A stretch of DNA of 64,000 nt from Terriglobia bacterium (GTDB taxonomy: Bacteria > Acidobacteriota > Terriglobia > 20CM-2-55-15). The first letter of the stretch is position 1; each line of letters opens with the position of its first letter. The stretch lies in NCBI GenBank assembly GCA_963664115.2, contig CAXWPJ010000009.1, forward strand, positions 704,001 to 768,000, written 5' to 3'. Both the position numbers and the translations under genes were made by a program. The notes under the pieces are model-generated. The model did not search any database and was not told the origin of the DNA. It saw only the letters and a program-made list of their open reading frames with translations. Below are positions 4,940-39,653 of this stretch, one piece after another.

Positions 4940-6310
4940 TTGAGGCTGCGGATGAAAAAGATCAGGAACATCAACCCGAAGAGGCTGTGGGCAGTCGGGG
5001 CAAGTGTCGCTACGGCTTTGCTTGTGACTGTGGCGCTGGGCGGCGGCACGCGTTCGGTGGAAACAGTGGTGTCCCAACAGGCGCTGAACGAGTCCTCCGA
5101 ACCGGGACGGGATGGAGCAATTCGAATGGTTCCCGTCGAGGGCGAAGGGGTGGGATACTGGCCACGCTGGCGCGGACCCTCGGGTCAGGGGCGCGTCGAT
5201 GGCAGCGGTTACCCGGATACCTGGTCGGAGTCCGAAAACGTCCTGTGGAAAACCCCCGTACCGGGGAACGGAAACTCGTCACCCGTGGTGTGGGATGACA
5301 GCATTTTTCTCACGACGGCCGATAACGGCGGCCAACGGCTATCCCTTCTGGCCTACAGCCGGTCCGATGGCGCGCTGCTCTGGGAGAGCTTCGCTCCCGA
5401 GGGGAGATCGGAGCGGGTCCATCAGAAGAACGGTCACGCCTCGGCGACGCCGACGACGGACGGTGAACGCATATATGTCTCCTTCGGCGCCCGTGGATTG
5501 ATGGCCTTCAGTATGGACGGCGACCTGATGTGGAGTCAGGATGTCGGCCAAATCAGCAACTATCACGGAGCAGCCGGTTCACCTCTGGTCTATAAGGACA
5601 AAATCATTATCTTTCAGGATCACTCCGCCGGTTCGTTCGTTGCTGCGTACGACACCCGAACAGGCGAAGAGTTGTGGCGAACTCCGCGGCGAGCGAGCGT
5701 GGGCTGGGGTTCACCGATCGCCGTTCACGTTGACGATCATGACGAGATCATCGTCCACAGCCAGAGACGGGTTCAAGCATATGATCCGGACACCGGACTG
5801 GAGCTATGGTGGTGCAACGGAAACACCTTCGAAGTGATTCCAACGCCGGTGGTCGGTTACGGAATGCTCTTCTGTTCCTCCGGACGCGCGGGTCCGACGA
5901 TGGCGATCCGTCCCGGCGGCGAAGGCGACGTCACCGACAGCCATCTCGTCTGGTCGAGTCCAAGGGGATCGCCATTTGTTCCGTCTCCAATTCTGTACGG
6001 TGACCAGATCTACATGGTCAACGACATGGCGAGCATTGCGACGTCTTTCGATGCGAGAACGGGAGAAACGATGTGGCAGGGACGACTCGGTGTGGCCCGG
6101 CGAGAGGGCTTTTCCGCTTCACCGGTGGCTGTGGACGGCAAGGTGTTCTTCACCAACGATAACGGCGAGACCTTTGTGAGTCGCGCCGGCACAGAATTTG
6201 AAGTGCTGCATGTAAACGACATCGGTGAGCGCACTCTGGCGTCGCCGGCGCTCGTGGATGGAAAATGGTACATCCGCACCGAGCAGAGTTTAATCGCTAT
6301 TGGCGAGTGA
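4940..6310 (+). CDS. PQQ-binding-like beta-propeller protein (BamB-like family)
   Basis: WPRWRGP N-terminal motif, repeated A-x-D-xxTG-xxxW blades. Confidence 0.85.
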   Translation: MRLRMKKIRNINPKRLWAVGASVATALLVTVALGGGTRSVETVVSQQALNESSEPGRDGAIRMVPVEGEGVGYWPRWRGPSGQGRVDGSGYPDTWSESENVLWKTPVPGNGNSSPVVWDDSIFLTTADNGGQRLSLLAYSRSDGALLWESFAPEGRSERVHQKNGHASATPTTDGERIYVSFGARGLMAFSMDGDLMWSQDVGQISNYHGAAGSPLVYKDKIIIFQDHSAGSFVAAYDTRTGEELWRTPRRASVGWGSPIAVHVDDHDEIIVHSQRRVQAYDPDTGLELWWCNGNTFEVIPTPVVGYGMLFCSSGRAGPTMAIRPGGEGDVTDSHLVWSSPRGSPFVPSPILYGDQIYMVNDMASIATSFDARTGETMWQGRLGVARREGFSASPVAVDGKVFFTNDNGETFVSRAGTEFEVLHVNDIGERTLASPALVDGKWYIRTEQSLIAIGE

Positions 6311-6442
6311 AAGAGTTAACCCGCATCCCTCTACTTTTGGAATTACTACTGACGTGTGAACCCACAACTTGAAGGCAGAGCGATGAACCGATGGCCCTAC
6401 CTAAGATTCAACGAAAGCTTTTCGGTTCACGCTTGTCTCTTC

Positions 6443-6488
6443 GCACTCCTGCATAGTGCCTGCCATGCTTGACCCACTCCGTTTGAAC
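6443..6488 (+). repeat. IS91/ISCR oriIS-proximal sequence, copy A, truncated at GTTTGAAC by the last attC
   Basis: 41/46 nt identical to 13027-13072, including a perfect 24-mer ATGCTTGACCCACTCCGTTTGAAC. Confidence 0.75.
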
Positions 6489-6580
6489 GGCACAGCGTTC
6501 AGCCGCAAACGGCGCAACATCCTGTTTCAGTTGCAACGAATCGCCGCGCGCCGTTTGGAGGCTGCAACGTTTTGTTAGGG
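6482..6580 (-). mobile_element. attC site (terminal site of array 1, ORF6N cassette)
   Basis: R'' CCCTAAC, L'' TTGCAGCC, L' GGCTGAA, R' GTTCAAA; imperfect palindrome; R'' complements the cassette-start GTTAGGG. Confidence 0.85.
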
Positions 6581-7108
6581 CTCATCTTTGGCAAAACCGA
6601 TTTGTCGTTTCTTCGGTAAGGCTTCTGGGCTCGCCAGTTGCCTGATCGCCTTGACCAACGCAACAATCTGACCGTCATGGTCGGTCAGCCGCCTCTCAAG
6701 TTGATTCAGTCGCCGAGCCAATTCTTTGTCTTGTCCGACTATTTGACGGAGCTTCACGAATGCCCGTATCACGAACACGCTCATCTCAACGGCCCGGCGG
6801 CTATTCAAGACGCTGGCTGCCATGAGAGCTCCGTGTTCGGTAAAAACGTACGGCAGCGCTTTGGAGAACTTGAGCTTCTCCAGGTGGTCGCAGTTTGCGA
6901 CCACCTCGGACTTTTCAGAGTGCGTCAGCTGAAAAACAAAGTCCGTCGGAAACCGATCTTTGTTCCGCTTGACCTGCTCATTCAATCTCTTCGTGGAAAC
7001 CCCATAGAATCCCGCCAGACCGGCGTCTATTACGACCTTTTCTCCGCGAATCAAGAGAATCTTATTCTCGATTTGACTGCTGCGGATCGCTGGCTTGACT
7101 GAATCCAT
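6575..7108 (-). CDS. ORF6N (KilA-N-like) DNA-binding domain protein, gene cassette
   Basis: IRGEKVVID..LA.FYGV.TKRLNEQVKRN..RFP.DF.FQLT and PYVFTEHGALM motifs; stop codon inside R''. Confidence 0.85.
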   Translation of the reverse strand: MDSVKPAIRSSQIENKILLIRGEKVVIDAGLAGFYGVSTKRLNEQVKRNKDRFPTDFVFQLTHSEKSEVVANCDHLEKLKFSKALPYVFTEHGALMAASVLNSRRAVEMSVFVIRAFVKLRQIVGQDKELARRLNQLERRLTDHDGQIVALVKAIRQLASPEALPKKRQIGFAKDEP

Positions 7109-7172
7109 CCAGCCTTCAGTCTAACGACAGTTCCGGCCGGAAGTGGTCGCATTTTGCGGCCTGCCTTTGTAG

Positions 7173-7266
7173 CCCTAACGGCTCACGATTGAGCTGCAGC
7201 GGCTGCAACCGCTTTTAACAATCTGCCCATACCGCAGCCGCTGCCAGCTCCAATCGGTTGTTAGGC
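7173..7266 (-). mobile_element. attC site
   Basis: GCCTAAC-aaccga-TTGGAGCTG...CAGCTCAA-tcgtgagcc-GTTAGGG. Confidence 0.9.
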
Positions 7267-7267
7267 G

Positions 7268-7945
7268 TCAATAATCCTTTGTCAGGCGCTGCTCTCGATG
7301 GAACAGTTCGTGGCAATCTCGACAGAGGGCGATCAAATCCTTGAAGTATTCGTCGCCGCGCCGCTCGTAGGTTCGATGATGAACGTCGAGTAGAGTATCG
7401 GCAGCATTGCAGATTTGACATCGAAATCCTGCGCTTTTCAGATGACGTGCTCTGCGTTCTTTCCATTCAGGACTCTGTAGATACTCGCGATATGACATGG
7501 TGCGTAGTTCGTGTAAGCGCACTGAAACTTGTCGGTTACGAACCTCCCACTCCTCGCGAGATTTCTGTTGAAGCGCCGTCGAGCAATCTTCGCAAGTCGG
7601 CCTCCCTCTTCGTAGCTCTGTACGGCTTGTGACCGGGACGGACCGCCCACACCGGTTACAAGGAAAGTCGGCCGTGATTGAACCGACCGTCCTCCGTAGC
7701 TCGTACTCATTAGTTCCGAGGAGATCCTTGGCGATTGCCTTCGCGGAAAGTCTAGGCTGGGTCCAATAGAGGTAACGAGCGGCCTCCATTCGCTCAGTCT
7801 CTGAAGGTAACTCCGACGCGATCTTTGATGGGATGTCGCGCAGCCGGTTGCGAAGCTGCTCGATGCCGTCAGTCATCTGGGCGATATCCTCAAGAATAGC
7901 TTCAAGTTCATCGATGGCACGACAAGCTGGCCTCGTAATTGTCAT
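7268..7945 (-). CDS. HNH endonuclease family protein with zinc-binding motifs, gene cassette
   Basis: YLQSPEWKERR...CQIC...LDVHHRTY...LCRDCHELFH; ATG lies 7 nt after the core site GTTATGC (the longer track ORF reads through attC). Confidence 0.8.
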   Translation of the reverse strand: MTITRPACRAIDELEAILEDIAQMTDGIEQLRNRLRDIPSKIASELPSETERMEAARYLYWTQPRLSAKAIAKDLLGTNEYELRRTVGSITADFPCNRCGRSVPVTSRTELRRGRPTCEDCSTALQQKSREEWEVRNRQVSVRLHELRTMSYREYLQSPEWKERRARHLKSAGFRCQICNAADTLLDVHHRTYERRGDEYFKDLIALCRDCHELFHREQRLTKDY

Positions 7946-7952
7946 CTTGTAC

Positions 7953-8018
7953 GCATAACGGTTTGGGCATGAGCCGCGGCGCGTCTTCTGCGCCGTCGGC
8001 TCCATGCCCGTGTTAGGC
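7953..8018 (-). mobile_element. attC site
   Basis: GCCTAAC-acgggc-ATGGAGCCG...CGGCTCAT-gcccaaacc-GTTATGC, 66 bp. Confidence 0.9.
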
Positions 8019-8075
8019 GGCTGGCATCCCTCTCCACGGTCGCCCACAGTTGCTGGGTCACAGCCCTGTCTGTAG

Positions 8076-8942
8076 CTACTCACGACGAAATGCCTCTGCG
8101 AAAGGCGTGAAGTTGTCTGGACCGTAACCGGCCGAGAAAATTGCGAAGGCGACTACGGCAAAGTCTGCCGCACGCGCGGTGATCTCCTCCCAATAGACCT
8201 GTGCGAAGCGATGAGCGGGATTCCGAAAAGCACCACATCCGAATGCGCCGAGAACAACATGGCGAATCCGTTGATCGCGTAACGTGTCTAGTTGTGCCGC
8301 GACTCTCCTCCGAGCGTCATTTGGATCGAAATCGGAACCGTCACGAAGATCTTGAGCTGCCGCGCGAAGTTCGAAAAACGGGAACACTTGGTCCTCTAAT
8401 AGCCAACTATACCCGAGGTCTGCTCTCGATCGATCCTCAGGCCCGCGAATGCAGACGCGCGGGCTTTGTGCATCCAAGTAGACGACGCCGTGTTCAGCCG
8501 AGAGCAGCCTCGTCATCTCGGCGTGGTAGCGATCTAGCCCACGGTCATACTCTTCTTCACCGATCCGATGGTGGCAGTCGGTGCGGCGGAACATGTTCTC
8601 CTCTTGGGCCACCGCGCCCTCGACGTACGCGCCACCAGGCACGTATGCGTTCGCCATGTTGAGAACGGCGAAACACACTCCGTGCGTGCTTGTCAGCGAG
8701 CGGGTGACCTCACCCCAATCCCCTGGAAACACGTCGACGCGAAGCTCTGACTCGGAGGCACCGCTCGTGGCTTGCCAGCGGTCAAGGTTTTCCTTTGCGA
8801 GGCGATGATAGTGATCGGAAGGATCGGATCGGTCGAATGCCGCGATCGTCTCGCGCCGAACCTGGCGCCTGCGCGAGCAGTCGGCGCCACCGAACCCTCG
8901 GTTTATCGCCTCCTCTTCAGAACACAGACGCCGTCCGGTCAT
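8076..8942 (-). CDS. Microbial-type poly(ADP-ribose) glycohydrolase-like macrodomain protein (TIGR02452-like), gene cassette
   Basis: LNMANAYVPGGAYVEGAVAQEENMFRRT (GG-x-QEE catalytic loop) and VLGAFGCGAFRNP. Confidence 0.8.
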   Translation of the reverse strand: MTGRRLCSEEEAINRGFGGADCSRRRQVRRETIAAFDRSDPSDHYHRLAKENLDRWQATSGASESELRVDVFPGDWGEVTRSLTSTHGVCFAVLNMANAYVPGGAYVEGAVAQEENMFRRTDCHHRIGEEEYDRGLDRYHAEMTRLLSAEHGVVYLDAQSPRVCIRGPEDRSRADLGYSWLLEDQVFPFFELRAAAQDLRDGSDFDPNDARRRVAAQLDTLRDQRIRHVVLGAFGCGAFRNPAHRFAQVYWEEITARAADFAVVAFAIFSAGYGPDNFTPFAEAFRRE

Positions 8943-8952
8943 GAGTCTGCCC

Positions 8953-8971
8953 GCCTAACTCATAATTAGCC
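8953..8971 (-). mobile_element. Truncated 19-bp attC/attI hybrid site
   Basis: GGCTAA-T-TATGA-GTTAGGC: R'' remnant joined to an attI-type 5-bp spacer and R box; no stem-loop. Confidence 0.7.
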
Positions 8972-9700
8972 AGCCTTAGGGAACCACTCGTCACTATGCA
9001 ATTCGAAGTACTCAGCCAGTTCGGTGAAAAATGCCCGCGCTGCCTGACAGTATTCCTCAAAGACACCTTCTTGAATGTAGAGGCCCTCTCCTGCGAGAGG
9101 GGAACCTAAGGGTACCCGAGGGCTCCATGCTTCCGGAAATAATAGCTCATCAAAACCGGGGTACCGAAACAGCTCCGGACGTTGGCGGTGCAGCTTCATC
9201 GCTGAAGATCCCTCACCATGTTTGACCGAATTTGCCACAAGGCGCAGTTCTTCGATTGGAGCCCAGGTTCTAAAGTCTCTTAGATCGATTCCGAAGTGGC
9301 GCTTATACCAGTCCGCGACAACCGACAGCTTTGTATCAGTTGGCTGGGGCACACGGAAGGATCCATCGCTACACGTATCCTTCAGCTGCTGCTCGACTAG
9401 GTGGAAGAGCCCTGCCGCGTAAATGCCGATGCTCGAATAGCGCAACGCGAACATCGTCTGATACCAGCCTATTCCGGCGTCTTGGGCCTCCTCCGCAACT
9501 GCTCCCATATCCACGTCGCCGTCTTCTGGAGCCGGCTGTCCAAGAAGCTTCTCCCACTCTCTCTGCGCGACTTCTTCCGCTCTCGCTTCAAGGTCCTTGA
9601 ATGCTGGAAGAACCGTGTCGCAAACACATTCTCCATACATCGCTATGAACTCGAGAGGTGTCCGCACTCTCATCGCCATGTAACTGCCTTGAACGGGCAT
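8966..9700 (-). CDS. Hypothetical protein with HEPN-like RxxxNxxKH motif, gene cassette
   Basis: Helical protein with E(QQL) and IEELRLVANSVKHG; starts just after the GTTAGCC core site. Confidence 0.6.
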   Translation of the reverse strand: MPVQGSYMAMRVRTPLEFIAMYGECVCDTVLPAFKDLEARAEEVAQREWEKLLGQPAPEDGDVDMGAVAEEAQDAGIGWYQTMFALRYSSIGIYAAGLFHLVEQQLKDTCSDGSFRVPQPTDTKLSVVADWYKRHFGIDLRDFRTWAPIEELRLVANSVKHGEGSSAMKLHRQRPELFRYPGFDELLFPEAWSPRVPLGSPLAGEGLYIQEGVFEEYCQAARAFFTELAEYFELHSDEWFPKAG

Positions 9701-9723
9701 GGTTCCATACCCCGAAAACGTCT

Positions 9724-9819
9724 GGCTAACGGCTCGGCGTTCAGCCGCGCCGAGGCGAGCGTCTTTTGCGAGCCGAGGGAACCGCCGAAGGCGGCGTCGG
9801 CTGCAACGCCTTGTTCGGC
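9724..9819 (-). mobile_element. attC site (first cassette of array 1)
   Basis: GCCGAAC-aaggcg-TTGCAGCCG...CGGCTGAA-cgccgagcc-GTTAGCC; R'' complements GTTCGGC at attI. Confidence 0.9.
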
Positions 9820-10391
9820 AGAACCTCCGGGAACAAGCAATCCTCTTCGATTTGCCAGCGCTTCAGCATAACGAAAACTGCACAATACGGTTCTTCAAGG
9901 GATGCTCGACTCTTTCTTCCCATACCCAAGACCAACTGGTTTGCCCAATCAATAGACTTTGGCGGAAGAGAACCGCGCTTAAGACGGAGCGATCGCTTTA
10001 TTGATGATAGTGTGCGCCCCTGTCGAACTCCTTCGCGAGTTCGCCTGACAATCTCGACTTGCGATAGTTTGCTTTGCCAAATCTCGATAACTCCCAGACT
10101 CAAGTTGTATCCAATATGAAGCACCGCGTGGCATGCGACGCAAACGGGCACGAGATTCTTTGGTGAATTACTTCGACTACTCCTCACGTGATGAAGGTTC
10201 ATCCACTTGCGCGCTCTGTGCCCACAAAAAACGCATGTCCAATTGTCCCTCTCCAAGACCGTTTTTCGAAGGCGCCTCCACACTGTCTGTTTCGGCCGTT
10301 TGGGAAACCAATACGCCGGATTGATTACGCCCGGGCGAAGAACCCATTTGCTTTGTGCCTTCGTTGAGGTTTTGCGCCTGACGGTCATCAC
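9741..10391 (-). CDS. HNH endonuclease family protein, first cassette (reads into its attC)
   Basis: WRRLRKTVLERDNWTCVFCG...LHHV...NLVPVCVACHAVLH; the C-terminal PNKALQPT is translated attC. Confidence 0.8.
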   Translation of the reverse strand: MMTVRRKTSTKAQSKWVLRPGVINPAYWFPKRPKQTVWRRLRKTVLERDNWTCVFCGHRARKWMNLHHVRSSRSNSPKNLVPVCVACHAVLHIGYNLSLGVIEIWQSKLSQVEIVRRTREGVRQGRTLSSIKRSLRLKRGSLPPKSIDWANQLVLGMGRKSRASLEEPYCAVFVMLKRWQIEEDCLFPEVLPNKALQPTPPSAVPSARKRRSPRRG

Positions 10392-10399
10392 CCGTTTCT

Positions 10400-10589
10400 G
10401 CCGAACACATAAATGAGCAGACGGGGCGAAAGCGAGTTAATGCATCTCCCATCCGCATAAGTCTATACGAGTTATCTCATTCATTCTGCAAAGTGTCTGA
10501 GTACGAAGATGTTACACGACGTTCGAATCTTGCAGTACGGAATTATCCGGAGGATGGGGACCCACGGGCGGGCGAAGCGGGATAAGGGT
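10400..10589 (-). mobile_element. attI region of integron 1 (core GCTCATT-TATGT-GTTCGGC at 10400-10418)
   Basis: Lies between the intI stop and the first cassette; colinear homology to 35858-36045 ends exactly at the GTT crossover. Confidence 0.8.
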
Positions 10590-11612
10590 TTATTCGGAAG
10601 GGAGGTCCAGGGAATCGAACGGACTCCGGACTCCGTGGGGCCCCCTGTTGAGGACGTGTGTATAGATCATGGTGGTTCGAACGTCCTCGTGGCCGAGGAG
10701 TTTCTGTACGGTTCGGATGTCATGTCCGCTTTCGAGCAGATGTGTGGCAAACGAATGACGAAGGCTGTGTGCGGTGGCAGGTTTGGCGATGCCCGCCTGC
10801 CCGGCGGCGCGTCTCATCTCCTTCTGCACCGAGGATTCATGAATATGGTGGCGTCTTTCCGTCTCCGAGTCCGGGTCGAAGTGACGGCGTGGGGCGGGAA
10901 AGACCCATTGCCAGCTCCACGCGGACTCGGCGTTCGGGTATTTGACTGCCAACGCATTCGGGAGCCGGACGCGTCCGAAGCCGCGAAGCAAATCGTCCAT
11001 GTGGACTGTTCGCGCAGCCCCCAACTGATTCGTCAATTCGACTCTGAGCCGGGAAGGGAGAACCGTCACGCGGTCTTTCCGGCCCTTGCCGCTCCGGACA
11101 AGGATCGATCGGCGCCCGAAGTCGATATCCTTGACGCGCAGCTGCAGCGCTTCAGTCAACCGAAGGCCTGTGCCGTAGAGAACACGACCCAGCAGTGCGG
11201 GAACGCCCCGCATCGCTGCCAATACCCTGGCGACCTCTTCAGTGGTGAGTACGACCGGCAACCGCCTGGGACGGCGTGCTCGAACCGGAGCTTCGATCCA
11301 GTGCGTCGGTCGTCCCAGTACTTCCCGGTACAGATAAAGAATCGCTGCGAGCGCCTGGTTCTGGGTGGATGCGCTCACGTTGCGTTGGACAGCCAGGTAA
11401 GTCAGAAAAACCTCGATATGCGATTCGTCAAGATCCTTGGGATGCTGCAGACCGTGAAAAGAGATATATCGGCGAACCCAGGACGCATACGTCTTCAGTG
11501 TGCGGGGACTGTAGTGGCGGATTCGGAGCGAATCCTTCAAGAGGTCCATTAACTTTCCCCCGGCATTGCCCGGATTTCGGCCCGTCTTCGGTCGGTTTCG
11601 ATTCCCAGTCAT
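10590..11612 (-). CDS. intI: Integron integrase
   Basis: RHYSPRT..Y, SASTQNQALAA, GLRLTE, GKGRKDR, IntI-specific insert LPNALAVKYPNA...WQWVFPA, HSLRHSFATH, LGH..VRTTMIY; start codon inferred. Confidence 0.96.
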   Translation of the reverse strand: MTGNRNRPKTGRNPGNAGGKLMDLLKDSLRIRHYSPRTLKTYASWVRRYISFHGLQHPKDLDESHIEVFLTYLAVQRNVSASTQNQALAAILYLYREVLGRPTHWIEAPVRARRPRRLPVVLTTEEVARVLAAMRGVPALLGRVLYGTGLRLTEALQLRVKDIDFGRRSILVRSGKGRKDRVTVLPSRLRVELTNQLGAARTVHMDDLLRGFGRVRLPNALAVKYPNAESAWSWQWVFPAPRRHFDPDSETERRHHIHESSVQKEMRRAAGQAGIAKPATAHSLRHSFATHLLESGHDIRTVQKLLGHEDVRTTMIYTHVLNRGPHGVRSPFDSLDLPSE

Positions 11613-11805
11613 GGCGCATAGAGAGCACGAGCAGCTCGGACTCCAACTGACACGGGGGAATTGGGGCCCGAGGAAGGCCAGTTCAGGGGGGATCACGGAC
11701 GGTCTCCCCGGCATGACAACACTGCAATGGCCGTTAGGTCCCGGTTGTGGAAGTCGCACAAGGTGGCGACTTCGCGATAATCCGGCGGGAAAACTCGCCC
11801 GCGCG

Positions 11806-12330
11806 TCAGTCGTGTGTGGGTGAATCGGGCTCGGGAAGGGAAGCGAGCAACTGTTCCCCGATCTGCCGCGCCCTCACCGCGCCGCTTTCCGTCAGTTGGT
11901 ACCGGCGCCCGCGATACTTTCCAACAACAAGGATGGATTTCCTCCGCGCATGATTGTTGAGGAGGTAATCGGCGCGGGATACGCGGTGCCCGGACGCGCG
12001 CAGTCCCTGGATGAGCTCGGTTCCGCTGACCAGAGTATTGTTTCGAATCTGTTTTTGGCCCAGCAGCAACACGAGCACAGCTTCCGAAGCCGACCTGGAT
12101 TGGACATTGAGCCACACGACCTTGCCGCTGACACGCATGATCTTGTCCAGGGGAGGTGTCTCTTCTTTCCCCTCCCGGGCTCGGGCAGCGGCGCCCGCAG
12201 CGAGCGTTTCCGCGTTCCCGCCCACGGTCAGCGTCATGAACGCATTGGCCTGCCGCTCGACGATCTCTACGGGACCTTCGGCTTCGAAACGTCTATCACC
12301 GATTTCGATCTTGATCCTCAGGTTTTCCAT
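11806..12330 (-). CDS. Hypothetical protein with probable C-terminal winged helix
   Basis: N-terminal KIEIGDRRFEAEG, C-terminal YQLTESG wing-like motif. Confidence 0.55.
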   Translation of the reverse strand: MENLRIKIEIGDRRFEAEGPVEIVERQANAFMTLTVGGNAETLAAGAAARAREGKEETPPLDKIMRVSGKVVWLNVQSRSASEAVLVLLLGQKQIRNNTLVSGTELIQGLRASGHRVSRADYLLNNHARRKSILVVGKYRGRRYQLTESGAVRARQIGEQLLASLPEPDSPTHD

Positions 12331-12829
12331 AAGAAGTCTATCTGCAACATGATCTCTTCAAGAAGTGCATGTACACGCTGAAATATGCATAGTGCTATTT
12401 ATCTAGACATACACCACTATGAATTAATCTTGTTGACTTGTATTGACACTTTTTCGATCAATATAGTCGTATGTCAGTGCTTTTAACACATATCGCACAT
12501 GAGAATGGCGTTACACAGGTGACGAGCTGTATTAAACGACAACCAATCCATTATTAATTGTATTTAAGATGTTCAAATAAAAATATATGAACTTTAAACT
12601 ATTCAGTGTTGTGTGGCGCTTTATGGAGATGTATAGCTGTTTCGGAAAGCGCGAGTCTAGTCATTGATCTCGAATTTCCGCATTTCGGACTGCAAAACAC
12701 CGCCTTCACTGCCAATGAGAATCAGACGTCCTTCATAAGAGGGCTGCGCTCGTTGTCCACTCGGGGATGTCGTCGGCTATGCCGCTCCACGCGTGTCCGT
12801 CATGACCGAGGAGGCGCCCAGTTGATTGC

Positions 12830-12975
12830 GCGATCACGTTTGTGCAGCGGTTTGGAGGCAGTCTCAATTGTCACCTCCATCCACTTCCACATGCTGGCGC
12901 TCGACGGCGTCTATGCGGCTGCTGAGAACGGGCATCCCCGATTCCACGCGCTGCCTGCCCCGGACGATGCCCATG
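12830..12975 (+). pseudogene. IS91/ISCR-family (HUH Y2) transposase remnant
   Basis: Frameshifted AITFVQRFGGSLN...HFHMLALDGVY, matching the family motif QRFGSALNLNxHFHxLxLDGVY. Confidence 0.85.
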
Positions 12976-13026
12976 TCGTCGAAGGTGCCCGCCGCAAACA
13001 GTCACAACTCCGGTTCGGGGCAACGG

Positions 13027-13083
13027 GCACTCCTGCGTACTGCCATCTATGCTTGACCCACTCCGTTTGAACAGCTTATTCTC
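13027..13083 (+). mobile_element. IS91/ISCR oriIS-like end, copy B (intact)
   Basis: Downstream of the transposase remnant; ends CCGTTTGAACAGCTTATTCTC, resembling the ISCR oriIS GCGTTTGAAyTTCCTATAC as I recall it. Confidence 0.65.
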
Positions 13084-13090
13084 ACGACTG

Positions 13091-14143
13091 ATGAGGAAAT
13101 TTCTACGTTCCGCAACATTGGGTATCGTTATGTTGGCGGCGCCACTCATCGCCTTTGCTCAGGAAGACCTGCCGCGGGTCGTGGTCCTCGCTACGGGAGG
13201 TACGATCGCCAGCACCTACGACGACGCGATCGGTGCGCTGCGTGTCGCCTTGACCGGCGACGAGATCGTGAGCGCGGTCCCGGGCCTGGACGAAATCGCT
13301 CGGATTACGGTTGAAGAAGTTGCGAACGTTAACAGTCGGAACATGACCCCCGCCATCTGGCTCAGCCTCTCCAAAAGGGCGAACGAACTGCTCGCACTGC
13401 CGGATGTTACAGGCCTCGTCGTAACGCACGGCACGGACACGCTCGAAGAGACGGCGTATTTTCTGGATCTCACCGTGACCAGCGACAAGCCGGTCGTCCT
13501 CGTTGGTGCGCAGCGAGCCCCGACAAACTACGACTCCGACGGCCCCCGAAACATGCTCAACGCGGTGCGCGTCGCTGCATCTGCCGAAGCGGTCGGCATG
13601 GGCACGATGGTCGTCATGAACGGGCAGATTAACGCGGCACGAGAGGTCACCAAGACCAACACACTCGACGTTGAGACCTTCCAAACTCTCGACTTTGGTC
13701 TCCTGGGCGTCGCGGATATCGAAGAGGTCCGCTTCTACAGGGCACCGTTTCGTCGCCAAACCATCGCGCTCGACGCAGAAGTTGAATTGGGGAACGTCGT
13801 GATCATCAGTGAGTATGCAGGATCCGATGGTCGGTCCATCGAGCTGCTTCTTGAGGACGGAAACCTCGACGGAGTTGTGATCGCGGGCCTCGGCCTCGCC
13901 CACGTGAGCGATCCGACACTGGAAGCTCTGCGCGCGGTACGCGCACGCGGGATCCCCGTCGTGGTCAGTTCGCGAGTACTGACCGGACGGATCGTCCCGC
14001 TCTACGCAATCAACATCGAGTTGTTGAACATCGGCGCCATTCAGGCGGACAACTTGAGTCCCCAAAAAGCCCGCGTACTTCTCATGGTGGCCATGACGAA
14101 AACCACCGATACCGAGGAACTCCAACGCTACTTCAACCGCTGA
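13091..14143 (+). CDS. L-asparaginase (type II, secreted)
   Basis: Signal peptide, ATGGTIAS and VTHGTDTLEETAYFL motifs. Confidence 0.92.
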   Translation: MRKFLRSATLGIVMLAAPLIAFAQEDLPRVVVLATGGTIASTYDDAIGALRVALTGDEIVSAVPGLDEIARITVEEVANVNSRNMTPAIWLSLSKRANELLALPDVTGLVVTHGTDTLEETAYFLDLTVTSDKPVVLVGAQRAPTNYDSDGPRNMLNAVRVAASAEAVGMGTMVVMNGQINAAREVTKTNTLDVETFQTLDFGLLGVADIEEVRFYRAPFRRQTIALDAEVELGNVVIISEYAGSDGRSIELLLEDGNLDGVVIAGLGLAHVSDPTLEALRAVRARGIPVVVSSRVLTGRIVPLYAINIELLNIGAIQADNLSPQKARVLLMVAMTKTTDTEELQRYFNR

Positions 14144-14269
14144 AGGTAACAGCCTGTGTTAGAACCCTGAAAGGCCCTGTCAACCTGGGAGCGCTGACTC
14201 GCGTTGTTTGAAAGAGCAGTTCCATCGTGCCAGGTGAAAATGTGGGCTGAGTCTCGACAGCCAATGTGG

Positions 14270-15856
14270 CTATCGCACGAAAACGTAGGCTGCGCCGGCG
14301 TCCGGAGCCGAGTTGTCGGTCTCGTTACCGTTGAACTCCCCGGCGGAACTGTCTTCGAAGCGCGCGCCCACGGCCAGGACTGTGCCGTCCTGGTTGAGAG
14401 CGACAGAGCTTCCGAACTCGTCGTATTGCTCCGTGTTCGAACCCTTGACATAGACCTGATGGGTCCAAGCACCGCCGCTCCGCGTATAGACGTAAACCGC
14501 GCCGGATTCCTGGGCCGAGTCGTCGCCCTGATCCCCGGCGAAACCAGTAGCCGCGCTGTCTTCGTTAGGCGCACCGACAACAAGCGTGTTGCCATCGCCA
14601 CTCAGCGCCAGGCGGACACCGAACCAGTCTTCATGTCCTGCGTTCGAGGCTTTGACAAACGCCTGTTGCGACCAACTGCTACCCGCACGTGTAAACACGT
14701 ATGCGGCCCCGGCGGAGGTATTCGTTATTTCATCGGCCCCGCCCTGATCGCCCGGATTGACGCCGGTGAGAAAACTATCTTCGTCGGCGGACCCTGCCGC
14801 CACCGTGTTTCCATCATCGCTGATGGCGACCCAGGCTCCCATCGAATCTCCGGGCTCGCTGTTTGAGGCCTGCAGGCGGTCCTGCTCGGACCACCGATCG
14901 CCACTGCGCGTGAAGATATCGACAGCCCCTCTCCTTCCGTCTCCGTCGTACACCCCCACGGCCAAGGTACCGGCGTTGCCGTCGAGTGCGACGGAGTAGC
15001 CGAACAGAACGTTGGCAGTTGTGTTGGAGCTCTTGATATAAGCTTGCTGGGACCACGTCCCGTCGTCTCGCCGGACGAATACATAAACGGCGCCGGCAGC
15101 GATCGCCGAGTTGTCCAACTGGTTGCTATCGATTCCGCTCGCCCCACTGTCTTCACTGGGAGCTCCCACAGCGAGCGTGCCACCGTCGTCGCTCAGCGCG
15201 ATCGTGTAACCGAACGTGTCTCCGTCCCCGGGTTCACCTGTGTTCGAAGCCTTGATATAGGCGGCCTGCGACCAGGTGGTCCCTGTGCGCGTAAAGACGT
15301 ACACGGCGCCCGACTGGTTGAGGGAGTCGTCGTCCTCCTCGCCATTGACACCAGTAGCGCTGCTGTCCTCGAAGACGGCGGACACAGCCAGCGTGTTGCC
15401 GGCCGCGCTCAGGGCGAGCGCGGATCCGAACTGGTCGTTCGGTCCGGTATTGGAGGCTTTGATGAAGGACTGCTGGGACCAGCTCGCGCTCGCGCCCGTG
15501 TAAACGTACACGGCGCCCGAGCTGTAAGCGGAGTCATCGGCCGGGCTGGGATCGTCGTCATAGACGCCGGTGGCCGAACCCCCGTTCATCGGAGCACCAA
15601 CCGCGAGTGTCGTGCCGTCGCCGCTGAGAGCGATCGCGGATCCGAACTGGTCTCCCGCAATCGGGCTCGACGCATTGATGTGACCCACCTGACTCCATGC
15701 CGGTGGAGAGTTCTCAGTCGAAGACGCGCCCGTTTCGGTTCCCCCGTCCTCGGCGCAGGCCGCGACCAGGAGCATTCCGGCGGCGGCCAGAACGAGTCTG
15801 CCATGGATCGCCCCTCGGACCGCAGCTCTCGCGTCGAGGCCTATTGATCCGCGCAT
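14270..15856 (-). CDS. FG-GAP/integrin-like repeat lipoprotein
   Basis: Lipobox LVAAC; repeated FGxxxALSxDGxTLAVGA...GAVYVF blades. Confidence 0.85.
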   Translation of the reverse strand: MRGSIGLDARAAVRGAIHGRLVLAAAGMLLVAACAEDGGTETGASSTENSPPAWSQVGHINASSPIAGDQFGSAIALSGDGTTLAVGAPMNGGSATGVYDDDPSPADDSAYSSGAVYVYTGASASWSQQSFIKASNTGPNDQFGSALALSAAGNTLAVSAVFEDSSATGVNGEEDDDSLNQSGAVYVFTRTGTTWSQAAYIKASNTGEPGDGDTFGYTIALSDDGGTLAVGAPSEDSGASGIDSNQLDNSAIAAGAVYVFVRRDDGTWSQQAYIKSSNTTANVLFGYSVALDGNAGTLAVGVYDGDGRRGAVDIFTRSGDRWSEQDRLQASNSEPGDSMGAWVAISDDGNTVAAGSADEDSFLTGVNPGDQGGADEITNTSAGAAYVFTRAGSSWSQQAFVKASNAGHEDWFGVRLALSGDGNTLVVGAPNEDSAATGFAGDQGDDSAQESGAVYVYTRSGGAWTHQVYVKGSNTEQYDEFGSSVALNQDGTVLAVGARFEDSSAGEFNGNETDNSAPDAGAAYVFVR

Positions 15857-16272
15857 GGGCCCGGTTCGCGGGGTTGGTTCGGTTCGTTGCCGCGGAAAAT
15901 TTCCTTGCCGTTCGCGTCGATTACCCGGGCTTCTTCAGAGAGGCTCATGTACGGTTGGCCGTTCTTGCGACTTCGGCCGACCATGGTGACTCGATCTCCC
16001 GCCTTGATGACATCCTCGTTCCAGCACCAGTCTCTCAAGTTGCTCGGACGACCCAGCTCTCCCGTCCACCGGACGGTGCGGCCGTTGGGTTCGGTGGTCT
16101 CGAGTTGGAGGAATGAATGGGGATTGAGGAGCTGAATCTCCAGAACCATTCCCGATACCGAAGTCAGGGTATCCTCATAGCGGCCGGCATCTCCATGATG
16201 TGCGACGGCGGGCCCCGACATCAGGACAAGACTAAGGACCATTATTAACCCACGTGCCAAAGCGCTCTGCAT
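15841..16272 (-). CDS. DUF6152-like exported protein
   Basis: Signal peptide followed by AHHG...V.G.V...NPH...W pattern. Confidence 0.7.
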   Translation of the reverse strand: MQSALARGLIMVLSLVLMSGPAVAHHGDAGRYEDTLTSVSGMVLEIQLLNPHSFLQLETTEPNGRTVRWTGELGRPSNLRDWCWNEDVIKAGDRVTMVGRSRKNGQPYMSLSEEARVIDANGKEIFRGNEPNQPREPGPCADQ

Positions 16273-16412
16273 GATCCAAAAACCTCCTGATCTGAACAGC
16301 TTATATAATAGACATCAATAGAGAGGTCAAAATTTTCTGGAATATCGGCCGCGTCGCTTCCTACGCTTTCGCCAAGCCGATGAGACCGAGCCTACTGAAG
16401 ATCGGTGAACCC

Positions 16413-16534
16413 CCAACGGCTTGGGTCATCTTGGCTAAACCGAAATCCAACACCTTCACGGTGCCGTCAGACCGTACCTTCACGCTAGCCGGTTTGAGCT
16501 CCCTACGGATGATCCCTTGATCGTGCGCTGCCTC
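16413..16534 (-). pseudogene. Ser/Thr protein kinase fragment
   Basis: [35 protein letters not shown] = degenerate HRDLKPAN...DFGLAK; no start codon or flanking domains. Confidence 0.8.
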
Positions 16535-16553
16535 CCGACGCTAGGCGCGGTGC

Positions 16554-17777
16554 TCAGTCGAGAGTCCACAGGGTCAGGTTGCTGACGTCCTTCACGTAGA
16601 AAGCGCTTCCTGAAATCGCAGGCTGCGCCCACGTTGCACTGGAGGCGACCTCGTAACGACGAATGGGCTCGAGCCCGGTCCGGCTGGCGTTCAGGACCAG
16701 CATTTCCGCATCATCCTGGAGCGAGAATATCGTGTTGCCGGCTCGGACAATCGCCGCGTTCTCAGCTTGACGCGGGTCGCTCAGCCATAACACTTGTCCC
16801 GAATCGAGGTCCAGGCCGAAGTATTGACCGCTGTTCAAGTGCGAGAGCCCGTAAAGCACGCCGTTGATTTCGACTCCGTTGGTCATATGCAGAGAGACTT
16901 CGTCGGTATGCCAGACATCTTCGGTCGTCCACCCGTCGGCCCCCGAAACGACGCGAAACGCCGTAATGCCGTTTTCGCGGCCAGCCTGGATCACCATGTC
17001 ACCGTAAAGAATAGGTGTCTGGGCGGTTGTGTCGGAGGGCGTCACGAACGGACGGCTCCAGAGCAGTTCACCGCTCGCCACCGCAACACCAACAAGATTC
17101 CGGTTCGTAAACGTCACAACCTGCCGAATTCCTTCCAGTTCGACAACGATCGGTGAACCATAGGCTGGGCTGTCTCCCTCCCATTGCCAACGGGGTTCAC
17201 CTGTAGCGACATCGAACGCCGTAAGTGCCCCGTCACCCGGGCCGCCCACGTGGACGATCATCACATCACCATCGACAACCGGCGACATGCCCGTGTGGTA
17301 TAGAGGTTGCGCCGCCGGTGCTGGGTTCTGCCAGAGCTGCGCGCCGTTCTCCGCATCGAAGGCAGTTACAATGCCGCTCATACCCAAAGTAAAAATACTG
17401 CCGTCGGCGTAGGTGGGTGTGGACTTGGGACCGGGGCCGTGGCGAGCTGTGGAGGAGGACATAACGAACGGGGCCGGATAACTCGTCCGCCAGATCGCTT
17501 CGCCCGTCTCTCGATCCAGCATTTGTAAGACTTCGTCCTCGTTCTGGCGTGTGTAAATGTAGACACGATCGCCCACAACGAGAGGTGTGGCGTAACCGGT
17601 TCCGACCTCCACCTGCCACTGCAGGTTTAACTGATCCGGCCAAGACGCGGGCGTGCTGAACTGAGCGATCGCACCGTCCCGGTTCGGTCCCCTCCACTGC
17701 GGCCAGTCCTGGCCATAGGCCATCGATGTGAGCCCAAAGCCGATGGTGAGGACGGAAAGTAGCCTCAGTTTTCCCAT
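16554..17777 (-). CDS. PQQ-binding-like beta-propeller protein
   Basis: Signal peptide, DWPQWRGPNRDG, PQQ-type blades; start MGKLRLL inferred. Confidence 0.85.
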   Translation of the reverse strand: MGKLRLLSVLTIGFGLTSMAYGQDWPQWRGPNRDGAIAQFSTPASWPDQLNLQWQVEVGTGYATPLVVGDRVYIYTRQNEDEVLQMLDRETGEAIWRTSYPAPFVMSSSTARHGPGPKSTPTYADGSIFTLGMSGIVTAFDAENGAQLWQNPAPAAQPLYHTGMSPVVDGDVMIVHVGGPGDGALTAFDVATGEPRWQWEGDSPAYGSPIVVELEGIRQVVTFTNRNLVGVAVASGELLWSRPFVTPSDTTAQTPILYGDMVIQAGRENGITAFRVVSGADGWTTEDVWHTDEVSLHMTNGVEINGVLYGLSHLNSGQYFGLDLDSGQVLWLSDPRQAENAAIVRAGNTIFSLQDDAEMLVLNASRTGLEPIRRYEVASSATWAQPAISGSAFYVKDVSNLTLWTLD

Positions 17778-17800
17778 AAAAACACCTCGTATGTGATTGG

Positions 17801-18250
17801 TCATGCCGCAGGACGAAAATACAAGACCATCGCGGCCCCGATCGCTGCCAACAGAAAACCCACGTACAACATCGGGTTGATCGGAGTCCGGGGTGGATGG
17901 ATCGCCATGGAGTACAAAACGTTCACGATCGGCGCACCCCCGAAAACGAGCGGCATGACGTATATGGGCAGCCCCCCGGTGCGAAACGCCCAGATAATAC
18001 AAACTGCCCCGATGGCGCCGAGGGCTCCGCCGGCCGTTGCATTGATCAGACCTGTCCGATCAAACCCGGAAAGTCCCCCCCCCACACTGAGGCCCGCCAC
18101 AGGAACCAACACGCCGATCAGAAAATAAGCCGCGCCCACACACAGCAACGCCTTGAGCGGATCGCCCAACTGCGTCTGTCCCTGGTGGAGTAAAACGCCG
18201 TAAACGCCCCAAGCCAGCACAGCCCCGACCACAAAAACGAGCCAACCCAT
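17801..18250 (-). CDS. Small multi-pass membrane protein (EamA/DMT-like)
   Basis: About 5 hydrophobic segments, WGVYG and VMPLVFGGAPIVN; start uncertain (18250-18286). Confidence 0.65.
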   Translation of the reverse strand: MGWLVFVVGAVLAWGVYGVLLHQGQTQLGDPLKALLCVGAAYFLIGVLVPVAGLSVGGGLSGFDRTGLINATAGGALGAIGAVCIIWAFRTGGLPIYVMPLVFGGAPIVNVLYSMAIHPPRTPINPMLYVGFLLAAIGAAMVLYFRPAA

Positions 18251-35588: not shown

Positions 35589-35682
35589 GCGGAACCTATT
35601 ATACCCTCGTCTGACTTCTGCGGTCCGCTCGCCTCTTGGCTCGCGCAGTCGCATTCGCGACACAAAAAAGATCTCCCGAGGG

Positions 35683-35840
35683 AGGTTCAGCCACTTCCTT
35701 GACCGGATGCCCCTTCTCGGCGACCTGCCGGATCGATTCCCGCCGGAACTCTTCCGTGTATCGCTGCTGTCTCATACTTACACTCCTGAGGTTGCCTCAT
35801 TTTAGCCCTCACAAATGTCTACGAAAGTATGGGCATTCCA
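35683..35840 (-). mobile_element. IS3-family remnant (left IR plus start of orfA)
   Basis: TG-initiated end TGGAATGCCCATACTTTCGTAGACA, RBS, then MRQQRYTEEFRRESIRQVAEKGHPVKEVAE (HTH_Tnp_1-like), truncated. Confidence 0.8.
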
Positions 35841-35845
35841 TCGCG

Positions 35846-36045: not shown

Positions 36046-36145
36046 GGACAAGCAAGAACGATGCGTCAGTGACATGCAGAACACATTGAGGCGAGTCCAA
36101 TCGCGATAGGCTATTCCAAGGATCGGACGTTGAACAGGATCAAAC

Positions 36146-36382: not shown

Positions 36383-36409
36383 TGACGCCCGACGATCTGA
36401 GGTTGCAAG

Positions 36410-36886: not shown

Positions 36887-36902
36887 ACAGCCGAATGTGG
36901 CC

Positions 36903-39650: not shown

Positions 39651-39653
39651 GCC

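Follow-up and report, generated by a model that had tools for sequence, protein, structure and literature searches.

Organization of the locus

The window analyzed here, i.e. the whole 64,000-nucleotide stretch taken from an environmental Terriglobia genome, holds an integron located between a PQQ/BamB-like beta-propeller gene and a type II L-asparaginase gene. The features of this region are listed below by window coordinates, with strand in brackets.

4940..6310 (plus): PQQ/BamB-like beta-propeller gene (Pfam PQQ_2, 1.6e-31), the conserved left flank of a variable region
6359..6420 (plus): IS256-family fragment, 5' UTR and approximately the first 10 transposase codons (80% over 60 nt to C4:20912-20971 of the same genome)
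6432..6488 (plus): left copy of the asparaginase 5' flank (90% identity, 60 nt, with the regions upstream of the asparaginase genes of G007 and G017)
6482..6580 (minus): terminal attC (attC_a), R'' CCCTAAC, R' G|TTCAAAC, crossover between 6487 and 6488
6488..13071 (minus): inserted unit, from the terminal attC to the second promoter copy (6,584 bp, from repeat spacing and a contig of run X5)
6575..7108 (minus): cassette 4 ORF with ORF6N domain (Pfam ORF6N 2.5e-28; PADLOC candidate PDC-S05 6.7e-54)
7172..7267 (minus): attC_b (canonical hairpin, z -4.3; model match 101 bits)
7268..7945 (minus): cassette 3 ORF with HNH-like C-terminus (Pfam HNH 1.2e-3; ZorE-type HNH 4e-7)
7953..8017 (minus): attC_c (hairpin z -6.9; model match 70.5 bits)
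8076..9700 (minus): cassette 2 with two ORFs (8966-9700 weakly HEPN-like; 8076-8942 microbial PARG-like / TIGR02452)
9724..9819 (minus): attC_e (model match 102 bits), R'' GCCGAAC matching the cassette 1 start TTCGGC
9741..10388 (minus): cassette 1 ORF, HNH-like by profile matches
10406..10589 (minus): attI, crossover G|TTCGGC between 10405 and 10406
10590..11552 (minus): intI, integron integrase (440 bits with TIGR02249, whose cut-off is 265; match spanning model positions 2-315 of 315)
11806..12330 (minus): orf174, an ORF next to intI
12331..12660 (no strand): AT-rich spacer (GC 0.36, region about 0.6)
12664..12832 (no strand): gene fragment (81% over 169 nt to G003:C8:6546-6714)
12828..12996 (plus): internal, frameshifted fragment of an IS91-family (Y2 HUH) transposase gene (169 bp, too short for Pfam)
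13027..13072 (plus): right copy of the asparaginase 5' flank, running directly into the gene and homologous to relatives
13053..13082 (plus): promoter-like site, TTGACC, 18 nt, TATTCT (consensus scan 9/12; block conserved in relatives)
13091..14143 (plus): type II L-asparaginase gene with signal peptide (316.6 bits with TIGR00520, whose cut-off is 314.3; Pfam Asparaginase and Asparaginase_C)

The flank carrying the PQQ gene is syntenic in G001, G002 and G004 up to approximately 6310-6337, and 6338-16553 forms a lineage-specific island, where G004 has about 200 bp and G002 a different 4.5 kb. The genomic match of the IS256-family fragment is the start of a 424-aa Transposase_mut ORF (PF00872, 475 bits).

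The integrase is intact, with a full-length TIGR02249 match and the Pfam domains Phage_integrase and SAM_4, and the attC sites are canonical. The gene lies on the same strand as the cassettes, a co-oriented layout that is also seen in four relatives, around whose intI genes a covariance model built from the four attC sites gave 29 matches (E <= 0.1), all cassette-side of intI. The boundary between attI and cassette 1 was taken from reading the sequence; a second attI at 35838-36045 is ~78% identical to 10406-10589, with homology stopping at GTT(C/G)GGC. Cassette starts agree fully or partly with their own R'' boxes, exactly so for cassettes 1 and 4, and the start of cassette 3 was set at the ATG at 7945 because the longer frame crosses attC_c. 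Neither sequence reading nor the covariance model found an attC between the two ORFs of cassette 2.

Upstream of intI lies what appears to be debris. No Pfam, NCBIfam or PADLOC match was obtained for orf174, its Atlas matches are exclusively hypothetical proteins, and no homologue was present at the intI loci of 11 relatives, i.e. it is not conserved beside intI. The gene fragment at 12664-12832 would, by our reading and with its frame judged by eye, be the 3' end of a minus-strand gene, and its matching locus in G003 has no IS91 protein match. The HUH transposase remnant that the initial annotation placed before the right repeat copy is present, and is 76% identical over 169 nt (E 1e-28) to an IS91-family gene of the same genome (C5:280594-280758). 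It includes HFHMLALDGVY and matches approximately residues 150-209 of a 479-codon frame, and is a mid-gene piece, not the 3' end of the transposase gene.

Identity of the flanking repeat

A 46-bp direct repeat containing a perfect 24-mer had been proposed to surround the cassette array, attI and intI, and recomputation recovered it: 6443-6488 and 13027-13072 bracket the integron, with 41/46 positions identical (43/49 over the longer span 6443-6491 vs 13027-13075) and a start-to-start spacing of 6584. The perfect 24-mer, ATGCTTGACCCACTCCGTTTGAAC, occupies 6465-6488 and 13049-13072; two matches never arose in 100 dinucleotide shuffles, and a scan of the 4.89-Mb genome allowing up to 3 mismatches found just these two copies.

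The repeat is the conserved 5' flank, a promoter-like -35 region, of the asparaginase gene at 13091-14143. The same sequence occurs in single copy upstream of the asparaginase gene in three genomes of the same genus (G002, G004, G001), two of another genus (G007, G017) and two metagenome contigs (L061, L064), and in all seven the homology runs past GAAC into CGCTTGTTCTC / AGCTTATTCTC and the gene, as it does in the right copy; in the left copy, which has a -35-like TTGACC and is truncated at GTTTGAA|C, homology ends at GAAC and the attC starts there. All five mismatches between the copies fall inside a 12-nt core that varies among relatives, the other 34 positions, which flank it, being identical, and the two copies therefore look like different alleles as opposed to a fresh duplication. 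Outside the 46 bp their distal flanks differ, the left one resembling G007, G017 and G004 and the right one G002. On the right side, BLAST homology to G002 begins at 12995 and that to other relatives at 13024-13042.

An empty site in a related strain

That the insert forms a discrete unit is shown by a related strain in seawater metagenome run X5, which has the empty site. One X5 contig (499 nt, depth 10.9, with neighbouring contigs at 9-10) joins 6464 to 13049, skipping 6,584 bp, the same length as the repeat spacing; 24 letters fit both sides of the joint and mask its exact position. Over its 6130-6464 part the contig shows 11 differences from the window, over 13049-13212 it shows 13, and it has the left-type core (at most one difference). 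X5 does not cover 6704-8208 of the insert at all, and depth is <1 in two bins up to 10616. The skipped unit comprises four cassettes, attI and the intact integrase gene, together with an orphan ORF, the AT-rich spacer, two gene fragments and the second promoter copy. On the empty-site contig the PQQ gene, the IS256 fragment and the left copy form one uninterrupted stretch, and because of this arrangement we take the left copy as the resident one.

The structure joining integron and promoter is not an assembly artefact: independent per-run assemblies of X7, X8 and X11, from three studies, each contain a single contig across both junctions, and X12, from a fourth study, has two contigs, one per junction. 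The X5 empty site could be a later precise deletion between the repeats and not the ancestral state. Divergence between X5 and the window is clustered, with 13/94 positions differing in 13084-13177 and <1% in 13189-13413, which could mean that the donor tract reaches beyond GTT into the coding sequence, the right side having joined by homologous recombination, or simply that the signal-peptide region is fast-evolving.

The left junction coincides with an integrase crossover

The homology of the left copy stops exactly at the G|TT crossover of an R' box. Its end, GTTTGAAC (6481-6488), reads on the minus strand as G|TTCAAAC, the R' box of the terminal attC, which folds with an L-box stem and matches the covariance model at 82 bits. 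The initial annotation had located the end of the left copy in this box and taken the attC for a hybrid, and both points hold: the 3' half of R' (TTCAAAC...) derives from the repeated sequence and is foreign to cassette 4, since the R'' of attC_a matches the cassette's own start, TTAGGGC, and TTCAAAC does not match that R''. The crossover lies between 6487 and 6488 with a target reading 5'-GTT, and a homology stop at this point is the trace expected from an IntI reaction at a GTT site, a sequence that fits the GWT target consensus reported in the work on attC x attG insertion (bioRxiv 10.1101/2022.09.11.507474). The corresponding point on the right, 13071|13072, falls within the spacer of the putative promoter at 13053-13082.

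Origin of the insertion

We consider that the 6,584-bp insertion in the asparaginase promoter was probably made by its own integrase, acting between the terminal attC and a secondary site of the attG type at GTT. The donor lineage would have carried the integron upstream of another allele of the same asparaginase gene, and IntI would have excised a circle by an attC x GTT reaction; the same preprint (bioRxiv 10.1101/2022.09.11.507474) also reports excision, taking place where insertion had occurred or at genomic sites close by. Besides the cassettes, attI and intI, such a circle would contain orf174, the gene fragments and a stretch of donor promoter of ~46-77 bp. Its point of entry in the resident promoter would have been the same GTTCAAAC, via IntI or via homologous recombination within the shared 24-46 bp. 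On the left, this would orphan the resident -35 half; on the right, it would join the donor -35 half to the resident -10 and gene, and the asparaginase promoter would therefore stay whole. The distal part of the right copy (from ~12995) would likewise have come in with the unit. No circular form or excision joint was seen in the contigs of eight runs, which cannot reveal rare molecules, and a donor with the integron beside an asparaginase gene but no left copy was not found in 401 genomes of the class, nor in the genome_contigs and metagenome_contigs scans. When the flank past the last detected attC was compared with the 9-10 kb on the upstream side of intI, 0/4 integrons of relatives had shared repeats, and the repeat-bracketed arrangement is therefore not a general habit of the clade.

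The initial annotation's proposal of an IntI cut at GTTCAAAC is retained as probable, while its oriIS and rolling-circle components did not survive. It had read the repeats as oriIS ends of an IS91/ISCR element, with IntI joining attC to oriIS and the right oriIS able to mobilize the integron, a scheme to which we give almost no credence. A genuine IS91-family tnpA fragment does lie 30 bp upstream of the right copy, the repeat includes GAAC, the complement of the IS91-family target GTTC given in PMC13181058, and a 7-copy IS91-family element of the genome bears GGTT(A/T)GAAC at one boundary. However, the ten other PF04986 loci of the genome, with their ends and flanks, lack the 46-mer, which terminates no IS91-family element of this genome; it is instead asparaginase 5' flank in the seven other sequences, and no IS91-family transposase was found within 16-18 kb around the asparaginase or PQQ gene at 8 loci in relatives, including the asparaginase flanks of the five genomes. 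The tnpA piece is internal and connected to no IS end, and therefore provides no oriIS from which rolling-circle mobilization could start. The right copy is followed by AGCT, where CTTG/GTTC would be expected beside oriIS according to PMC13181058, and the left copy is adjoined by the IS256 fragment, with no transposase remnant of the IS91 type. IS91 has no role here; its transposase piece simply travelled with the unit, as did several other dead fragments.

Two further explanations have to be weighed against insertion by IntI. Linear DNA of a relative, holding an integron, donor promoter and the 5' part of an asparaginase gene, may have been taken up by homology without IntI acting at this locus, with homologous recombination on the right, within the asparaginase gene or its promoter, and, on the left, illegitimate joining at AAC microhomology or a donor already so built, the match to the attC crossover being inherited from an older event or due to chance. 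The X5 divergence cluster, adjoining a near-identical stretch, would suit a tract ending in the gene; IS and gene fragments litter the island; and identity between two genera is 86-90% for the asparaginase module but ~73% for the PQQ genes, so this module recombines or transfers often. We nonetheless regard this route as unlikely: it does not explain a left breakpoint on the sole phosphodiester of a 99-nt attC that IntI cuts, at a 5'-GTT target, and a donor with the ready-made structure merely moves the origin one step back. Quite improbable, in our view, is an in-situ rearrangement of an ancestor with two asparaginase loci, in which IntI or another process fused the terminal attC to one promoter, deleting its gene and leaving the orphan left copy, with the second locus by chance on the other side of the integron and the empty site a later deletion between the repeats. 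IntI-driven deletions from attC to nearby sites are described in the attC x attG preprint (bioRxiv 10.1101/2022.09.11.507474), and 24 nt of identity would permit a precise deletion yielding exactly the X5 joint. Yet this scenario requires two paralogous loci in the same orientation and separated by 6.6 kb, and more events than a single insertion; a DNA search of 40 relatives gave at most one full-length asparaginase match per genome; and X5 has the left-type promoter running straight into the gene, with no cover of 6704-8208 and virtually none up to 10616. If IntI did place the unit at the GTT site, the whole integron would behave as one giant mobile cassette.

Comparison with known systems

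Secondary sites of integrons were reportedly addressed in earlier work by Francia, Recchia and Hansson. A close parallel is attC x attG insertion as presented by Loot et al. (bioRxiv 10.1101/2022.09.11.507474), which shares with our locus a junction at the R' G|TT, a 5'-GWT target lacking attI or attC structure, and a position beside or inside a resident promoter, and which employs an IntI1 assay, whereas our junction arose naturally, in the genome of an environmental member of the Terriglobia. Here, moreover, 6.6 kb with intI, attI, four cassettes and non-integron debris was inserted, not one ORF plus attC, and the inserted DNA brings an allelic copy of one target arm, which is why 46-bp imperfect direct repeats flank the insertion.

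The integron also resembles the 'inverted integrase' group, e.g. that of Treponema denticola, in which intI is on the cassette strand: intI, attI and cassettes are on one strand, with attI just past the 3' end of intI. This likeness concerns the platform type alone and has no bearing on the junction. ISCR1, one of the IS91/ISCR rolling-circle elements, adjoins complex class 1 integrons, and here too IS91-family HUH transposase sequence adjoins an integron. Unlike the IS91 elements treated in PMC13181058, however, it is just a 169-bp internal frameshifted fragment with no oriIS or terIS, and the repeat is host promoter DNA.

Comparison can finally be made with prophages and genomic islands. In these, attP may carry the end of the target gene; integration then makes the gene whole again, with a diverged copy of its end remaining at a displaced position. 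Our unit differs in using an integron integrase, in having a folded attC hairpin as one 'att' arm in place of a duplex core with arm sites, and in that no excisionase is evident and a circular form is hypothetical. The shared traits are direct repeats of target sequence that flank the unit, one resident and one element-borne and diverged, a recombinase encoded inside the unit, an empty site in a relative, and a promoter rebuilt from the element's copy.

The direct repeat and the integron it encloses

A minus-strand integron (locus A) lies inside a 6,584-bp unit (6488-13071) and is enclosed by two direct repeat copies, a left one at 6443-6488 and a right one at 13027-13072, that are identical at 41 of 46 positions, or at 43 of 49 over 6443-6491 and 13027-13075, with a start-to-start spacing of 6,584 bp. 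The copies share a perfect 24-mer, ATGCTTGACCCACTCCGTTTGAAC, which occurs twice in the window (two matches in 0/100 shuffles) and has no further place in the 4.89-Mb genome with up to three mismatches. Both junctions are covered by separately assembled contigs from four public runs of four studies, i.e., one 13,884-nt contig covering 5500-13208 in each of X7 and X8, a contig covering 5996-13363 with 12 differences in X11, and two contigs across the junctions in X12. Because these independent contigs cross both junctions, the integron and repeat structure is not an assembly artefact. The repeat stands as the initial annotation had described it.

Features of locus A and of the DNA upstream of intI
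10590-11552, minus strand: intI, hit to TIGR02249 'integron integrase' (440.4 bits, cut-off 265) over positions 2-315 of the 315 in the model
10406-10589, minus strand: attI, directly after the intI stop codon, with cassette 1 starting at G|TT
9724-9819, minus strand: attC site (this and the next three with R''/R' boxes and hairpin folds)
7953-8017, minus strand: attC site
7172-7267, minus strand: attC site
6482-6580, minus strand: terminal attC site
11806-12330: orphan ORF, orf174
12331-12660: AT-rich stretch, 330 bp, GC 0.36
12664-12832: DNA fragment, 81% identical to a place in another genome (G003)
12828-12996: IS91-family transposase gene piece, 169 bp, internal and frameshifted, with the right repeat copy coming next

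The integrase gene is intact and matches the model of integron-type tyrosine recombinases over its full length, and the 184 bp between its stop codon and cassette 1 are ~78% identical to a second attI in the window (35838-36045), with the homology of the two attIs stopping at GTT. All four attC sites fold as hairpins (z -2.2 to -6.9), and a covariance model built from them recovers all four; in the DNA around the intI genes of four relatives it gives 29 further hits (E <= 0.1), each of them on the cassette side, and in a second array of the window (locus B) another four. The layout is common to the four relatives, and since intI and the cassettes are co-oriented on the minus strand, cassette read-through from intI is possible. 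Cassette starts (TTCGGC, TTAGCC, TTATGC, TTAGGGC) match their own R'' fully or partly, and exactly for cassettes 1 and 4; cassette 1, for example, runs from 10405 downward and begins with TTCGGC, in agreement with its own R'' GCCGAAC. The exception is the terminal attC, in which R'' is CCCTAAC, yet R' is G|TTCAAAC (box definitions and crossover point as in PMC12901181).

The cassette genes (6575-10388) appear defence-related. An ORF6N cassette ORF matches the PADLOC candidate PDC-S05 (6.7e-54), two cassette ORFs are HNH-like, and one cassette has two genes, of which one is weakly HEPN-like and the other resembles microbial PARG (TIGR02452). No Rfam family was detected in 5500-14500 at E <= 0.1. 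Upstream of intI, orf174 has no family in Pfam, NCBIfam or PADLOC, and its Atlas matches are hypothetical proteins, with a weak Penicillinase_R lead (0.76). The IS91-family piece shares 76% identity (E 1e-28) with a gene of this genome at C5:280594 and carries the HUH motif HFHMLALDGVY, which bears out the HUH transposase remnant noted earlier ahead of the right copy.

The repeat is the 5' flank of an asparaginase gene

The two copies had been taken for oriIS ends of an IS91/ISCR element, with the right-hand one potentially able to mobilise the integron by rolling circle, given a transposase in trans. The repeat lies directly upstream of a type II asparaginase gene (13091-14143, TIGR00520), and among 40 relatives searched a single copy was found upstream of asparaginase in G001, G002 and G004 of the same genus and in G007 and G017 of another, with the same 5' flank in metagenome contigs L061 and L064. 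All seven sequences, like the right copy, go on past GTTTGAA(C) to CGCTTGTTCTC / AGCTTATTCTC and then the gene, and in the left copy homology ends at GAAC, followed by the attC. A promoter-like TTGACC-18-TATTCT, which is a pattern match only from a consensus scan, falls at 13053-13082 in this conserved block and so places the crossover point in the spacer of the predicted promoter.

The genome holds two copies of the 46-mer, neither of them beside any of the ten other PF04986 loci, and the sequence is thus not a conserved end downstream of tnpA; it is also unlike those loci and their mapped ends. As had been proposed, relatives of the transposase piece were followed up, and neither the mapped ends of a seven-copy IS91-family element nor the sequences on either side of the closest gene (C5) proved related to the 46-mer. 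A blastn comparison (word size 7) of both repeat regions against the genome returned nothing like it beyond the 8-mer GTTTGAAC, which has 246 occurrences in the genome, and no IS91-family protein was matched in eight loci of 16-18 kb each around the relatives' asparaginase and PQQ genes. PMC13181058 places terIS 5' of tnpA and oriIS 3' of it, with CTTG/GTTC directly outside; at locus A, AGCT follows the right copy and GGCA the left. Since the 46-bp repeat is not the terminus of intact IS91-family elements, the oriIS reading fails on the very point named at the outset as decisive against it, and rolling-circle mobilisation from the right-hand copy is rejected together with it. A short repeat beside a transposase fragment resembled an IS end, and proved to be host promoter DNA.

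The asparaginase gene and ~60-100 bp of its 5' flank (12995-14189; loci L047-L051) form a module with sharp boundaries. Its identity between two genera is 86-90%, against ~73% for their PQQ genes, and its context differs in every genome examined, which points to repeated horizontal transfer of the asparaginase gene.

An empty site and the origin of the two copies

The PQQ gene (4940-6310) and the gene at 16554-18002 border a variable hot spot, which spans 10.2 kb in the window and contains an IS256 fragment, the integron unit, the asparaginase gene, an FG-GAP repeat protein gene and DUF6152. The same two genes are ~200 bp apart in G004 and separated by an unrelated 4.5 kb in G002 (L052, 7909-12464), and therefore 6338-16553 is a lineage-specific island with the asparaginase gene already inside.

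In a seawater metagenome (X5), a contig of 499 nt (depth 10.9, neighbours similar) joins 6130-6464 (11 differences) to 13049-13212 (13 differences); the 6,584 bp in between are missing, and 24 letters at the joint fit either side. The same run leaves 6704-8208 uncovered and reaches only a depth below 1 in two bins up to 10616. The related strain in X5 so carries the PQQ gene, the IS256-family fragment (6359-6420), one promoter copy and the asparaginase gene, without the integron. Locus A hence combines flanking direct repeats with an empty site in a relative, as integrative elements do. The X5 contig follows the left-type core (the ten of its 11 differences that are listed all lie at or before 6394), which identifies the left copy as the resident one, and unit 6488-13071 would have brought the distal part of the right copy with it. 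Divergence in X5 is clustered at 13084-13177 (13/94), adjoining nearly identical sequence, a cluster that may reflect a tract of homologous recombination extending into the gene, or no more than rapid evolution of the signal peptide. Just 3' of the asparaginase gene (14171-14267), 95 bp are swapped for 92 other letters in the X5 strain, another small allelic swap at the 3' edge of the asparaginase module.

Alternative histories of the locus bear on both the empty site and the repeat. A unit once present might have been lost later by precise deletion, leaving the empty site. With respect to the repeat, all five mismatches between the copies lie within a 12-nt core that is variable among relatives too, the other 34 positions being identical, and beyond the 46 bp the distal flanks differ, the left one (CTTGTCTCTTCG) being like those of G007, G017, G004 and L061, and the right one like that of G002 (BLAST, from 12995; 12995-13026 is a weak extension). 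A recent in-situ duplication should leave identical copies in identical distal flanks, as should a sister-chromatid exchange, and both are rejected on this ground. The pattern of differences fits two copies that diverged as promoters in separate lineages and were later brought together.

A joint at G|TT and a possible route of insertion

The left copy, compared with the right copy and with seven other asparaginase flanks, is homologous up to C6488, which is the complement of the R' G, confirming that this copy stops at the G|TT of the attC R' box. The left joint is the phosphodiester 6487/6488, where that of an attC x attG product lies, and the target is a 5'-GTT, of the 5'-GWT form of genomic targets, within GTTCAAAC on the minus strand, in the promoter-like block conserved in relatives. 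Of the earlier proposal that IntI had joined an attC to oriIS, the suggested use by IntI of the GTT in GTTCAAAC stands, and the identity of the target as oriIS does not. According to 10.1101/2022.09.11.507474, IntI places DNA that bears an attC into genomic GWT sites ('attG'); an insert close to a promoter can be expressed, and excision is possible where the DNA was inserted or at a genomic site nearby. We favour, as moderately probable, a joint made by IntI together with insertion of the unit.

A scheme of such an insertion would begin with a donor that had the integron upstream of a different asparaginase allele. Recombination by IntI between the terminal attC and the GTT of the donor promoter would yield a 6.6-kb circle, with the hybrid attC followed by 46-77 bp of donor promoter. 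The circle would then be integrated at that same GTT in the resident promoter through IntI, or through homologous recombination within the 24-46 bp that both promoters share; the two routes are expected to give an identical product. The product would read resident distal promoter / attC ... cassettes, attI, intI ... donor distal promoter / resident -10 and gene, and the proposed steps reproduce the observed order of promoter halves, cassettes, attI and intI. To the full circle scenario, with IntI driving both steps, we would assign at best somewhat less than an even chance.

Relics of such events were sought elsewhere. The pattern GCTTGACCNNCTCCGTTTGAA occurred at five loci in one scan of genome_contigs (three known relatives and two unrelated) and at six loci in one scan of metagenome_contigs (two asparaginase flanks and four unrelated), none of them with an attC, and the attC joints to the repeat that the initial annotation had suggested looking for in genomes and metagenomes did not appear. 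The donor arrangement was found neither in one scan of each of these collections nor in 401 genomes of the class, in which platform DNA (10400-13071) gave only distant intI matches (65-77%) and fragment matches. No circular joint (13071>6488) or excision variant was reported in eight runs, as assembled contigs only, and no joint skipping the unit in the contigs of X7, X8, X11 and X12. A low-depth joint in X11, 7263>9726 (depth 4.3, side 33), links two attC halves; it was considered as a cassette excision and set aside, the link not being an excision product and probably belonging to another organism's array. In the integrons of four relatives (G001, G002, G020, G033), no repeats are shared between the flank past the final attC detected and the sequence upstream of intI; the arrays of these relatives may extend past the DNA compared.

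A second integron-derived insertion and other elements

Features of locus B
35589-40674, plus strand: integron-derived insertion, with an IS3-type HTH_Tnp_1 transposase fragment, the last ~12 nt of intI, and an attI ~78% identical to that of locus A
36903-37021, plus strand: attC (attC model; at least four in all)
38024-38145, plus strand: attC
38820-38922, plus strand: attC
39650-39758, plus strand: attC

Locus B is absent from four same-genus relatives, in which a DUF4403 gene abuts a trypsin/NACHT gene, and holds at least four cassettes, including a RelE/Xre pair and a LexA-DNA-binding-like ORF. It is flanked by a perfect 18-bp repeat, unique in the genome (35571, 40434, 40660), each copy of which lies ~20 nt downstream of a GTTTGAAC. 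Its geometry matches that of locus A, in that the repeats begin at a GTT..AAC core and run downstream in the integron orientation. At its right joint, the attC model recognised no attC with filters off, and locus B is for this reason a lead rather than a second proven case. The right edge also carries a perfect 226-bp tandem duplication (40240-40465 / 40466-40691) that includes the 18-bp repeat; it may have arisen recently in the genome itself or be a product of assembly.

Elsewhere in the genome, a 2.48-kb element is present in seven near-identical copies (e.g. L003, G000:C1:92879-95358). It encodes a tyrosine recombinase (Phage_integrase + SAM_4, with ~32% identity to IntI) and, after it, a Y2 transposase of the IS91 family (398-codon frame). 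The element has GGTT(A/T)GAAC|TAAGCCGCAGG at its left boundary, and the left flanks of its copies are loosely alike, as if it targets a repeat family.

Taken one step further, locus A could be a self-moving integron, in which IntI excises and re-inserts platform plus array as a giant cassette by way of the terminal attC, a quasi-palindromic genomic GTTYRAAC site and an attP-like target arm, recurrently so given the footprint of GTTTGAAC-linked unique repeats of the target at locus B, 25 kb away. We regard this extension as rather unlikely.

Comparison with known systems

Mobile integron classes ride transposons, sedentary ones are thought to be fixed, and IntI puts single cassettes into genomic GTT sites; to our knowledge, the relocation of chromosomal integrons is poorly understood. 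Locus A presents, in a natural genome, the same joint as a single-cassette insertion with a whole integron as the inserted piece, together with an empty site in a related strain and a target promoter rebuilt from the copy on the insert. If IntI made the insertion, an integron can itself play the part of an integrative element, and recombination of attC with attG can relocate platforms as well as cassettes; if the self-moving reading were true, chromosomal integrons would have a recurrent relocation route. The case is directly testable with the IntI of locus A, its terminal attC and the 46-bp site. A full-text literature search returned no title or abstract on whole-integron movement by attC x secondary-site recombination.

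The closest likeness is to the attC x attG product, as described in 10.1101/2022.09.11.507474, with which locus A shares the joint at G|TT, a GWT target and a location in ordinary genomic DNA. The usual insert in that system is a cassette, i.e., one ORF and an attC, whereas that of locus A is 6,584 bp with intI, attI, four cassettes and other DNA. Because the insert is not a cassette, locus A is a variant of the attC x attG product and not a plain member. The unit as a whole behaves like integrative elements that carry a copy of the target in their attachment site; what is unusual at locus A is that the inserted piece is an entire integron with its integrase gene.
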